From positions 2,880,001 through 2,912,000 of the forward strand of contig NZ_JAGIOS010000001.1 in the NCBI RefSeq assembly GCF_017876815.1: 32,000 nt of DNA, in the 5' to 3' direction. A program made the position numbers. Origin of the DNA: Sinorhizobium meliloti. GTDB lineage: Bacteria > Pseudomonadota > Alphaproteobacteria > Rhizobiales > Rhizobiaceae. Shown one piece after another: positions 12,201 to 15,200 of the stretch; the first letter of the stretch is position 1, and the number at the start of each line of letters is the position of its first letter.

Positions 12201-15200
12201 GTTTCGCTGATGGTGAGGGAGGCCGCAGCCCACAAGTGGCCAACGAAAAACAAGTCCGAAATCGTGGATGCGCTGGCGAGCGATCTCGGGTGGAGCAGGA
12301 CCAGGGCGAAGGATTTCTACTATGCCGATCCGAGAATTGCACTCCGAGCCTACGAAATGGCGGAAGTCGAGAAATGGCTTGCTGCGGTTCGCTCGGCGCT
12401 TGGCATTCGCAATCGCGCCTGAGCTGAGGGAAGAAGAGGGGGATCGCAATGTTCAGGACTGACCTTTTCAGCGAGACTAGCACCGGCGCTTTGATGGCCT
12501 CCGCCTATGTCGGCGCGCCCCTTATCGTCGATAGCTTCGCCGGCGGCGGTGGAGCCTCGACCGGCATTGAGATGGCGCTCGGCCGCTCGCCGGACATCGC
12601 CATCAACCACAACCCTGATGCGCTGGCGCTCCACGCGGCCAATCATCCAGAGACGCACCACCTCTCTGAGAACGTCTATCGCGTCGATCCTCTCGACCAC
12701 CTCAAGGGCAAGCACATCGGCCTCGCCTGGTTCTCCCCGGACTGCAAGCATTTCTCCAAGGCCAAAGGCGGCAAGCCCGTGGAGCGCAACATCCGCGATC
12801 TTTGCTGGATCATTCCTGGCTGGATCGAGCGCATCCAGAAGAGTGGCGGCCGCGTCGATGTCGTCATCATGGAGAACGTCGAGGAGTTCAAAGATTACGG
12901 TCCGCTGGTCGCGACCGATCGCGGGCTGATGCCTCACCCTGAGCGACGCGGCGAGAACTTCGAGAAATGGTGCAAGAAGCTGCGGCGGCTCGGCGGCAAG
13001 ATCGAGTTTCGCGAGCTGCGTGCCTGCGACTATGGCGCTCCTACGATCCGCAAGCGGCTGTTCGTGATCATTCGGTTCGACGGCAAGCCGATTGCCTGGC
13101 CTGAGCCCACTCACGGTAAACCTGAGGACCCGGATGTGATGTCCGGCAGGAAGCTGCCGTGGCGCACCGCAGCTGAATGCATTGACTGGTCTCTGCCTTG
13201 CCCCTCGATCTTCGACACTTCGGCAGAGATCTGGGCGAAGCACCAGCTACGCGCGGTGCGACCGCTCGCGGATGCAACGATGGCCCGCGTGGCCCGCGGC
13301 ATGAAGCGCTATGTGCTTGATGCGGAGCGTCCGTTCTTGGTCAGTGTCGCGCACGGCGATAGCGGGGGTCGCAGGGAGTATCCCATTGACGAACCGCACG
13401 GCGTCGTCACCGCAGGAGGTATCAGCCATGCCGTCGTTGCCCCCTCGGTGATCCGCTTCAACACCGGCGCGACCGGACAGGATATGCGCGATCCGCTGTC
13501 AACGGTGACGGCGAACAGCTTTATCAAGCGGCCGGGTGGCGCAGCGCCTTTGGGCATCATTGCGCCGGTTCTGACCGCTGCTCAGCAAGGCGGCTCCGTC
13601 CGCTCGGTGGCGGATCCGCACCACACCATTACTGCCAGCAGCAAGGATCAGAATTCCGTCATCGTGCCGACGCTGGTGGGTTGTGGCGGCCGGGCAGGGC
13701 AAAGCCGTCCGCGTGCTGGCGACGAGCCTGTCGGAACGATCACGGCCAAGGCGGATGGCTGCGTTGCGGTCGCCTTCCTTGCGCAAAACAACTATCTTGA
13801 GCCTGGCCATGATGCGTGCGAACCACTGTCGACAATCGTCGGCAGGGGCAGCACGCAGAGCCCAATAGTTGCTTTCATGGCCCAACACAATGGGGATCCG
13901 CGCCCCGATGGTAGCGAGACCGCTCGTCCGGGCCGTGCGGCGGATGAACCGTTGGCGACCATCACCCAATCGGGAAGCCAACAGAGCCTCGTATCTGCAT
14001 TTGTCGCTCGCCAGTTTGGCACCTCGACGGGTCATGCCGTTGACGATCCTGCAGCGACGGTTATGGCGGACGGTGGTGGCAAGTCGCAGCTCGTCATGCC
14101 CTACCTGCAGGCATACTACGGCACGGGCGACGGCCAGCACGAGACCGAGCCGATGCGGACGGTAACGACCAAAGATCGGCACGGCCACGTCGAGGCGACT
14201 ATCAGCGTCCCGCCCTTTACCGATGCGCAGGCCGATCGCGCGCGCCAGGTCGCTAGCTTCATGCGCGCGCACGGCTTCTGGGACGATCGCGAGTTCGTCA
14301 CAGTCGAGATCTCGGGCGAGACCTTCGTAATCGTCGACATCGGAATGCGGATGCTAACCCCGCGCGAACTCTTCAATGCGCAGGGGTTCCCGTCCGACTA
14401 CGTCATTGATGGTGCTTGGAACTATCAAGCAGACGGCGCCGGCCCAGTCTGGCGCGAGTTCTCGAAGTCGGTCCAGGTCTCCTGTGTCGGCAACTCTGTC
14501 TCGCCCCCGGTCGCCTGTGCGCTGGTCTCGGCGAACTGCAGCCACCTCGCTGTTCAGAGGGAAGCCGCATGACCACCACACCTACATCAATCGGAGGCAA
14601 GGCGATGGCAGAGCATCTTCTTTTCAGTGAACATCTGACCGCAAAAGACGTGCACCGGCCGATTGCTGAAACCTACTTAGGCCAAGCGCACATCGCCGGC
14701 ACGGGTCCGGAAGGCAAAACTTGTCGCGAGTGCATCTTTTGGCACGTATGGAAATCGAGGAAAGTGTCAGGGGGTACCGAGAAGATCCCCGCAGACCCGG
14801 GCTACTTCGGCAAGCGTCATGCAAAAACGCCCTGCGAGCTGAAAAAAGCCCGCTGCAACCGTCCTATCCTGAACAAAGCCAACCGTCTCATCCCGCACAC
14901 CGCAAAGGCATGCCGGTTGTTCGAAGCGGCGGAACACGTCCTTCCGGCCAAGAAGAGCGGGTAAACGGATGCCGGCGATGATCCCAGAAAAGATCGCTTT
15001 TCTCGACAGCGAAATAACCGGTTTGCGCTCCCGAATCGGTGATGGCGGCAACTCCGTCCAGCGTGCCAAGCTCAAGATGTTGCGTGACATCCGCGAAGAC
15101 TATCAGAAGTCGATCGATGTTGCCGCGCGCCGAGAGCAGGGAGGTGCGGCATGATGGGTTCAACCGCTCATCTTCGACGGAACCTCCTTGCCGGGCACCG

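Follow-up and report, generated by a model that had tools for sequence, protein, structure and literature searches.

An eight-cassette array in a prophage cytosine methyltransferase of Sinorhizobium meliloti points to multispecific DNA recognition

Introduction

Phage methylases with target-recognition domains (TRDs) in tandem have been on record since the 1980s. The characterised multispecific enzymes of Bacillus phages are about 440 amino acids (aa) long and use two or three active TRDs, a number that may reach about five in M.BssHII. With tandem TRDs these orphan phage enzymes recognise several sequences and protect DNA from many restriction systems, and both a 2022 paper and a 2025 review cite Bacillus phages alone for this architecture (PMC8936443, PMC12707154). 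Here we analyse a 32,000-nucleotide (nt) stretch of Sinorhizobium meliloti DNA, positions 2,880,001 to 2,912,000 of contig NZ_JAGIOS010000001.1 (assembly GCF_017876815.1), which we call the window and whose own numbering is used throughout. On its plus strand, at 12449..14572 with the stop codon included, lies the gene for an orphan C5 DNA methyltransferase of 707 aa, identified by open reading frame (ORF) calling, PF00145 and phrog_116. Its variable region holds eight short, related units. Comparison of this region across a large protein family makes it probable, in our view, that the 707-aa enzyme is a multispecific orphan phage C5 methyltransferase in which eight mini-TRDs serve one catalytic domain.

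A second group of prophage enzymes has come to light through its phenotype. Dziewit et al. (PMC3925955) cloned two 5-methylcytosine (m5C) methylases from Paracoccus aminophilus prophages and ascribed to them a 'relaxed substrate specificity', and homologues of about 700 aa of a further enzyme, Phi2LM21_p23, are widespread (PMC5537653). The published accounts of the Paracoccus and Sinorhizobium enzymes that we consulted, these two papers included, describe the phenotype and make no mention of repeats, cassettes or TRD arrays. By tblastn, the 707-aa enzyme is 58.5% identical to Phi2LM21_p23 and 49.7% to Pyei1_p05 (query coverage 96-100%), and 39% identical to ARM81mr_p29.

An array of eight units

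Eight [DE]-P-x-x-T-[VI]-T cores follow one another at aa 314, 347, 388, 425, 457, 499, 532 and 566 (nt 13388-14170), with a module boundary about 15 aa upstream of each. Compared with one another, the units reach a mean Smith-Waterman score of 29.9, against 18.1+-0.78 in shuffles of the same region (z=15), and a hidden Markov model (HMM) of the unit, built from family members over 38 positions (consensus TRYGGGSRGRDADEPLHTVTAKGRGQLVVAALLLKYYG), finds 8/8 of them at 9.9-40.5 bits. An earlier note, made from the sequence, had described eight P-x-x-T-[IV]-T units between motif VIII and the C-terminal motifs, and every core lies at the residue named there. The span that it proposed, 13370-14203, was right as to location and short as to exact limits: the units are 32-41 aa long, and the array between motifs VIII and IX covers aa 301-591, that is nt 13349-14221. 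Searches of the array for direct or tandem repeats at the DNA level found none; the units are thus ancient, diverged protein repeats, and recent slippage or duplication is ruled out as the origin of the array.

To place this array among its relatives, we searched exhaustively among 1.84 billion cluster representatives and obtained 6949 relatives, 2206 of them at E<=1e-30. Matches extend to 353 phage genome records, with Rhizobium, Pseudomonas, Gordonia, Mycobacterium, Arthrobacter and Bacteroides among the hosts, and the family occurs in phages of Proteobacteria, Actinobacteria and Bacteroidota. Cassette statistics refer to the 150 best representatives unless otherwise given. In the variable regions of these the unit HMM finds 906 units, and in shuffled versions 0; a protein has between 1 and 10 units, with a mode of 7, and the spacing from core to core in the family peaks sharply at 30-39 aa. 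Even distant members have arrays, with about 5 units in Gordonia phage Valary, about 8 in Caulobacter phage Sansa and about 7 in E. coli phage Eeyore. We also looked for complete members with a single cassette and found none: complete proteins have at least about three, and the shortest entries are truncated by frameshifts. One above the mode of the family, eight is an ordinary number of units. The expectation in the earlier note that eight units would be extreme does not hold for the family; the number is high only beside the few characterised multispecific enzymes, those of Bacillus phages.

Exchange of cassettes across the family

The units were typed by anchoring each on its Pro and applying average-linkage clustering, which we used instead of single linkage because the latter lumped all cassettes into one cluster. 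This yields 214 cassette types, 45 of which occur in at least 5 representatives, and 149 distinct architectures among the 150 representatives.

The eight cassettes of the 707-aa enzyme, all on the plus strand, have relatives scattered over these architectures. Cassette 1 (aa 301-337; 13349..13459; core DEPHGVVTA; unit HMM 9.9 bits) is of type 172, 'GGxxHA', which is also found in P0139 and in the Paracoccus proteins P0344 and P0345. Cassette 2 (aa 338-378; 13460..13582; core RDPLSTVTANSFIKRPGGAAPLG; 28.8 bits) is of type 112 and recurs at other array positions in Pyei1_p05, P0345 and the enzyme of Pseudomonas phage F116. The type of cassette 3, 206 (aa 379-410; 13583..13678; core ADPHHTITASSKDQNS; 31.8 bits), stands at position 5 in Pyei1_p05, and that of cassette 4, type 100 (aa 411-447; 13679..13789; GGRAGQSRPRAGDEPVGTITAKAD; 35.5 bits), at position 2 in Pyei1_p05 and position 4 in F116. 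Cassette 5 (aa 448-484; 13790..13900; core CEPLSTIVGRGSTQS; 28.6 bits) belongs to type 156. Cassette 6 (aa 485-522; 13901..14014; core DEPLATITQSGSQQS; 37.2 bits) belongs to type 161, common to F116 and the three-cassette enzyme P0126, and cassette 7 (aa 523-556; 14015..14116; core DDPAATVMADGGGKSQ; 34.8 bits) to type 202, which appears in 43 of the 150 representatives at array positions 2-9. Cassette 8 (aa 557-591; 14117..14221; core TEPMRTVTTKDRHGH; 40.5 bits), of type 2, is fixed in the last position: its type group ends the array in every case.

Internal types thus occupy many array positions, and 23 of the 80 pairs of co-occurring types can be found in either order; a few types stand first wherever they occur, and the group TVTTKDR[FH]G.. 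invariably comes last. The mixing can be followed by eye: units of the kinds TITAKAD, TVTANSFIKRPGGAAPLG, DPHHTITASSKDQNS, SGSQQ and PLGTVVAGGxKHA are present in Sinorhizobium, Paracoccus and Pseudomonas enzymes in differing orders. Each cassette of the 707-aa enzyme finds its best match in other enzymes, with scores of 60-95, against 0-40 for neighbours in its own protein (self about 110). Within a type, identity reaches 54-55%, compared with 59% for the catalytic core.

Close relatives catch the exchange in the act. Proteins whose cores are 75-99% identical differ by the clean loss, gain or replacement of whole cassettes. P0012 lacks exactly cassettes 4 and 5 and is 99% identical elsewhere; P0021 lacks cassette 2 and is otherwise about 90% identical; cassette 5 is missing from P0013, P0038, P0056, P0069 and P0095, the last three of which also have extra cassettes. 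Across 119 close homologues we count 56 architectures, and the types of cassettes 1-8 are present in 68, 85, 118, 100, 44, 111, 88 and 98 of them respectively, the presence or absence of each type being independent of the others. The junctions of these insertions and deletions fall right after the hydrophobic strand, so that the linker rich in G, R and Q belongs to the cassette that follows it. On this comparison of sequences, the units evolve as cassettes, gained, lost and replaced whole, and shuffled in order throughout the family.

The same type is almost never used twice in one protein. Duplicates occur in 3 of the 150 representatives, against 30-37 expected when internal cassettes are permuted among proteins; 0 of 2000 permutations gave a count as low. 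Whichever of the clustering cut-offs was tried, duplicates fell 4- to 15-fold short of expectation. Such avoidance of duplicates implies selection on what each cassette type does.

A code like that of the transcription activator-like effectors, in which few variants are reused, was considered and rejected: there are 214 types in 150 proteins, with reuse in 3/150 arrays against 30-37 expected, and hundreds of types that avoid duplication are the opposite of a repeat code with a small alphabet. The repeat-based reading of DNA with one repeat per base, which the earlier note had put forward as its alternative, loses ground for the same reasons.

These patterns also bear on a rival view, that the array is one composite DNA-binding domain, a stack of beta-hairpins or a flexible clamp, with a single specificity that is relaxed or directed to a short 'CC'- or 'GC'-like motif. 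The number of cassettes would then set affinity or processivity and not the list of motifs. We consider this unlikely. The first and last cassette types do keep their positions, as parts of a composite domain might, and repeat number varies commonly in structural repeat proteins too. However, a structural repeat should show positional orthology and similar neighbours, and what we find instead is hundreds of types, a shuffled order and almost no same-type duplicates. Nor does similarity rise noteworthily between neighbours: adjacent units score 3.6 and non-adjacent ones 1.9, where the self-score is about 110.

Protection by relatives

Tested relatives offer a second line of evidence on the same question. 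The P. aminophilus enzymes partially protect DNA at 16 unrelated sites and leave 12 others unprotected (PMC3925955, Table S6). Partial protection was recorded against AluI (AGCT), BsuRI (GGCC), Hin6I (GCGC), HpaII/MspI (CCGG), EcoRII (CCWGG) and Bme1390I (CCNGG), and further against NciI (CCSGG), TaiI (ACGT), XhoI (CTCGAG), PvuII (CAGCTG), PauI, BglI, CaiI, EcoO109I and HpyF10VI; cleavage was full at CGCG, TCGCGA, GATC, GGNNCC, CCWWGG, CTAG, CATG, GANTC, CCGCTC, ACGCGT and CCATGG (PMC3925955). The protected sites are discrete and unrelated. Non-specificity would not give such a list, and neither would a simple 'CC' rule: CCATGG, CCWWGG and GGNNCC are cut despite their CC. The list also sits badly with one composite domain of short-motif specificity, since AGCT, GCGC, ACGT and CTCGAG are protected although they lack CC, and the three sites just named and CCGCTC are left open although they have it.

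We recovered both of these methylases from the P. aminophilus chromosome: P0344, of 703 aa, and P0345, of 685 aa. They are 68-69% identical to Pyei1_p05, in agreement with the figure in a later paper. They have 7-8 cassettes, among them the types of cassettes 1, 2 and 8 of the 707-aa enzyme and a type like that of cassette 5.

Likeness to known recognition domains

How could a unit of some 36 residues read DNA? Position-wise entropy gives the cassettes a framework of Pro (99%), Thr at +3 (95%), Val/Ile at +4 (82%), Thr at +5 (66%), Ala at +6 (44%) and Gly at -6 (48%), which can be written G..[DE]-P-x-x-T-[VI]-T-A and is followed by a hydrophobic strand. Two segments, at -14..-7 and +7..+12 from the Pro, vary between types and are conserved within a type; counted from the Thr, they lie at about T-17..T-10 and T+4..T+9.

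The monospecific enzyme M.HhaI offers a template for this layout. Its loops 233-240 (T-17..T-10) and 250-257 (T..T+7) are the ones that read bases, and the stretch GKGGQGERIYSTRGIAITLSAYGGG, residues 233-257, contains Thr250-Leu251. The type-specific segments of the cassettes match the positions of these two loops around Thr250, the sequence T250-L-S-A-Y-G parallels the cassettes' T-[VI]-T-A-x-G, and the catalytic fold and motifs are alike. When HhaI 233-262 is anchored on Thr250 and scored against the cassette profile, it stands out from its own shuffles (z=3.15, P~0.001), a weak signal to which the anchoring itself contributes a part; K234, G236, Q237, G238, R240, S243, T250, A253 and G255 are the positive contributors. 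The unit HMM also gives a weak match to KPSPTITT, the one such element in a monospecific methylase (E=3.5e-4; sequence from PMC11954522). Monospecific C5 methyltransferases have one folded TRD of about 80 aa, unlike the eight cassettes of about 36 aa here, which AlphaFold2 cannot place.

Among the eight, the last cassette is the one that resembles a proven TRD. In EPMRTVTTKDRHG, 9 of 13 residues agree with the core of the C-terminal TRD of SPbeta MtbP, EPAFTVNTIDRHG (z=5.2-5.6, P<0.001), and the other seven cassettes give z<=2.6. One could therefore suppose that only the last cassette, next to motif IX, is a working TRD, and that the internal ones are pseudo-TRDs, spacers, or protein-binding or decoy sites. 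Conservation of the last-cassette type group across the family, always at the end of the array, fits such a division of labour, and Lange et al. (1991) reportedly described inactive pseudo-domains in Bacillus-phage enzymes. Against it stand the internal cassettes themselves: they have the same P..T[VI]TA framework, their type-specific segments are as strongly conserved as the catalytic core, and the avoidance of duplicates implies selection on the function of each type. One TRD would also leave the many unrelated sites protected by homologues without explanation. We regard this restricted view as improbable, more so than that of a single composite domain.

Structure prediction left the array blank. 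In an AlphaFold2 model of the 707-aa enzyme (multiple sequence alignment of 85 sequences), residues 269-591 have a predicted local distance difference test (pLDDT) score below 50. The same was found for residues 275-378 of P0126, the natural three-cassette relative, modelled from 130 more diverse sequences, with 82-97 over the core and the C-terminal helix. The array is richer than the core in G/P/S/T/Q/N/D (50% vs 35%) and poorer in bulky hydrophobics (24% vs 33%). Low pLDDT and this composition may indicate cassettes that are flexible until docked or, equally, alignments scrambled by shuffling. That no rigid domain emerged is a further count against a composite fold; on the modelling as such, the result for the array weighs neither for nor against a rigid scaffold.

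Catalytic domain and chemistry

The rest of the protein is that of a C5 methyltransferase. Pfam PF00145 (C5 cytosine methylase) matches in two stretches with 60.4 bits against a cut-off of 22, and phrog_116 'DNA methyltransferase' with E=1.8e-89; NCBIfam TIGR00675 'dcm' scores 57.5 against a cut-off of 100.65, which places the 707-aa enzyme outside the level of that model. A 100% identical protein is annotated in S. meliloti chromosomes. The N-terminal catalytic part, with a constant segment after motif VIII, spans aa 1-300 (12449..13348, plus strand) and contains motif I FAGGGG (aa 30-35, nt 12536-12553), motif IV S-P-D-C with the catalytic Cys99 (aa 96-99, nt 12734-12745), motif VI ENV (aa 142-144, nt 12872-12880) and motif VIII TIRKRLF (aa 199-205, nt 13043-13063). 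After the array, the constant C-terminal part (aa 592-707, 14222..14569, same strand) has a helical insert, motif IX RMLTPRELFNAQGFP (aa 634-648, nt 14348-14392) and motif X GNSV with Asn682 (aa 681-684, nt 14489-14500). All six classical motifs (I, IV, VI, VIII, IX and X) are present. AlphaFold2 gives pLDDT 80-95 over aa ~20-250 and 71-94 over aa ~640-700, and with this core Foldseek retrieves the folds of MET1/DNMT1, M.HaeIII and M.HhaI at E~1e-11 to 1e-10, and also DNMT2 and a prophage methylase.

Motif IV deserves a remark of its own. An Asp stands between the Pro and the catalytic Cys, where a P-C dipeptide is usual; this SPDC is invariant among the aligned close homologues and is found in the active Paracoccus enzymes as well. 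It raises the thought that the enzyme might be a CmoX-like transferase of carboxymethyl groups, or another hypermodifying enzyme, and that such chemistry is what the array serves. CmoX (PDB 8yf3) is indeed the second-best PDB sequence match, over aa 26-106, where both have motif I FAGGGGxSTG. CmoX, however, is defined by SPPC and by an Arg that replaces the motif-X Asn and binds the carboxymethyl group (PMC12783734), and the 707-aa enzyme has SPDC and a GNSV in which Asn682 is kept. Moreover, a CmoA or ligase gene did not turn up among the scanned ORFs of the window, and homologues block m5C-sensitive restriction enzymes. A hypermodifying role is thus very improbable, and a CmoX or carboxymethyl identity was rejected on motif grounds (Asn682 kept, SPPC absent). 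The FAGGGGxSTG common to phage CmoX and the family of the 707-aa enzyme suggests that the two groups of phage enzymes are related in their N-terminal halves.

In six family members (P0237, P0100, P0133, P0171, P0221 and P0262) an insertion of about 300-370 aa lies exactly at motif IV; in P0237 its junctions read FSPDC|FPAGTPVL...VVHN|CTHHSKAKGG, and P0100 contains a Pfam Hint domain (PF13403). These insertions look like inteins placed at the catalytic cysteine of the methylase.

Prophage setting

The window opens with the gene for tRNA-Lys(CTT) (196-271), which adjoins a tyrosine integrase gene (359-1570, minus strand); the tRNA gene beside the integrase is likely the integration site and the left end of the prophage. 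From there the order is tRNA-Lys, integrase, a DUF5131 protein, RecT, a CI-like repressor (8707-9408, minus strand), an ORF with a T5orf172/MUG113 (GIY-YIG-like) domain immediately upstream of the methylase (11850-12422), and the methyltransferase. Downstream follow an O-like replication initiator (15706-16446), an antiterminator (17581-18186), an insertion sequence (IS) transposase, and portal and major capsid genes. No restriction-nuclease partner was found beside the methylase gene in the window, nor in Pyei1, ARM81mr, F116, Valary or Eeyore. The enzyme is an orphan methylase in the early/replication region of a prophage, and its relatives in Paracoccus Pyei1, Aeromonas ARM81mr, Pseudomonas F116, Gordonia Valary and E. 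coli Eeyore have comparable locations.

Several side observations concern this neighbourhood. An 81-bp unit, repeated 2.1 times with 98% identity (15206-15377), lies between the O-like initiator gene and the ORF that follows the methylase; it could be a set of origin iterons, or an in-frame duplication in a small minus-strand ORF rich in Pro, Asp and Glu (15160-15420). The IS-type transposase ORF (22156-23706; phrog_1157, E=4.7e-92), between the antiterminator and portal genes, is flanked by arrays of a 24-bp repeat at 21990-22082 and 24505-24562. A PAPS-reductase-like gene, and not the T5orf172/MUG113 ORF, adjoins the methylase gene of E. coli phage Eeyore and of Rhizobium phage RR1-A. In F116, genes 9-11 form a block of three methylases, with the cassette-array C5 enzyme between two DNA adenine methyltransferase genes.

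Discussion

To explain these results we propose that each cassette would pair with the shared catalytic domain, which depends on SAM, so that a cytosine in the cassette's own short motif is flipped and methylated; the enzyme would thus methylate about eight different motifs. The gene, a neighbour of the replication genes, belongs to the early rightward operon of a prophage of lambdoid type, and from this position the methylase would be made on induction or infection. Progeny phage DNA would then be pre-methylated against many host restriction enzymes, and gain, loss and swapping of cassettes between phage genes would re-tune the set of protected motifs. Before docking on DNA, the cassettes may for the most part lack a fold, which would explain the failure of AlphaFold2 to place them. 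The earlier note had suggested a multispecific array of tandem TRDs; cassette typing, shuffled order, whole-cassette insertions and deletions, duplicate avoidance, the HhaI-like layout and protection by homologues all speak for that suggestion, and we infer that one cassette corresponds to one motif, that the cassettes work independently and that the 707-aa enzyme is active.

Several results pull in the other direction. Protection by the Paracoccus enzymes is only partial, and its authors read it as 'relaxed' specificity and not as a sum of discrete ones (PMC3925955). Of the relatives that have been tested, Phi2LM21_p23 is the closest, and in E. coli it failed to protect DNA (Decewicz et al., PMC5537653). 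The general unit HMM scores -3.3 bits against MtbP, which is not significant, and the cassette profile has no significant match among PDB sequences, so that homology to proven TRDs rests on a short motif and on layout. In two independent AlphaFold2 runs the array stayed below pLDDT 50, which leaves the docking of cassettes on the catalytic domain unmodelled. Finally, the fixed position of the first and last cassette types may reflect a structural role rather than recognition.

Beyond the single enzyme, we envision, with rather less confidence and at slightly under even chances, that the family as a whole forms a natural combinatorial library: hundreds of mini-TRDs of about 36 residues, each with its own motif, used one at a time by a common catalytic domain, and shuffled by phages of at least three phyla to reset the restriction sites that are masked. 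Multispecific cytosine methyltransferases have hitherto been regarded as an oddity of a handful of Bacillus phages. Here the same principle would operate at a much larger scale, with thousands of members in the phages of three phyla, 5-10 cassettes in each and hundreds of types. If so, no DNA-recognition system known from cytosine methyltransferases would be larger or more modular. The model makes a prediction, that natural variants which have lost a cassette differ by single motifs, and this renders a dictionary of cassettes and motifs testable. Such a dictionary could be read from methylomes and lead to designer multi-site methylases; the cassettes would be compact parts for methylase engineering, for example to pre-methylate DNA so that it gets past the restriction barriers of bacteria that are hard to transform. 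Cassette sets would also be relevant to the prediction of phage host range.

Literature searches, with REBASE outside their scope, found no description of the cassette array in the PHROG 116-type family. That so large a family is built from short cassettes, taken from hundreds of types and shuffled into arrays of 5-10, is as far as we found undescribed, and specialists may already know of it. The alphaproteobacterial and Aeromonas prophage enzymes of about 700 aa reported for 'relaxed specificity' (JCM7686_0772, JCM7686_2655, Pyei1_p05, Phi2LM21_p23 and ARM81mr_p29; PHROG 116) belong to the same family as the 707-aa enzyme and have the same kind of array, some of the same cassette types and the same location in the replication/early region of their phages. 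The array would offer a structural explanation for the 'relaxed specificity' of the Paracoccus, Sinorhizobium and Aeromonas prophage enzymes. The set and order of cassettes in the 707-aa enzyme, however, are unlike those of every characterised member. With the Bacillus-phage enzymes M.SPRI, M.Phi3TI/M.SPbetaI (MtbP), M.Rho11sI and M.H2I, and with M.BssHII, the likeness is one of plan: a single catalytic domain and short TRDs in tandem between motifs VIII and IX, a role that the cassettes would fill here. The differences from the Bacillus-phage enzymes lie in the eight cassettes of this enzyme, the arrays of up to 10 in its family, the pool of more than 200 types, the separate sequence family and the SPDC of motif IV.

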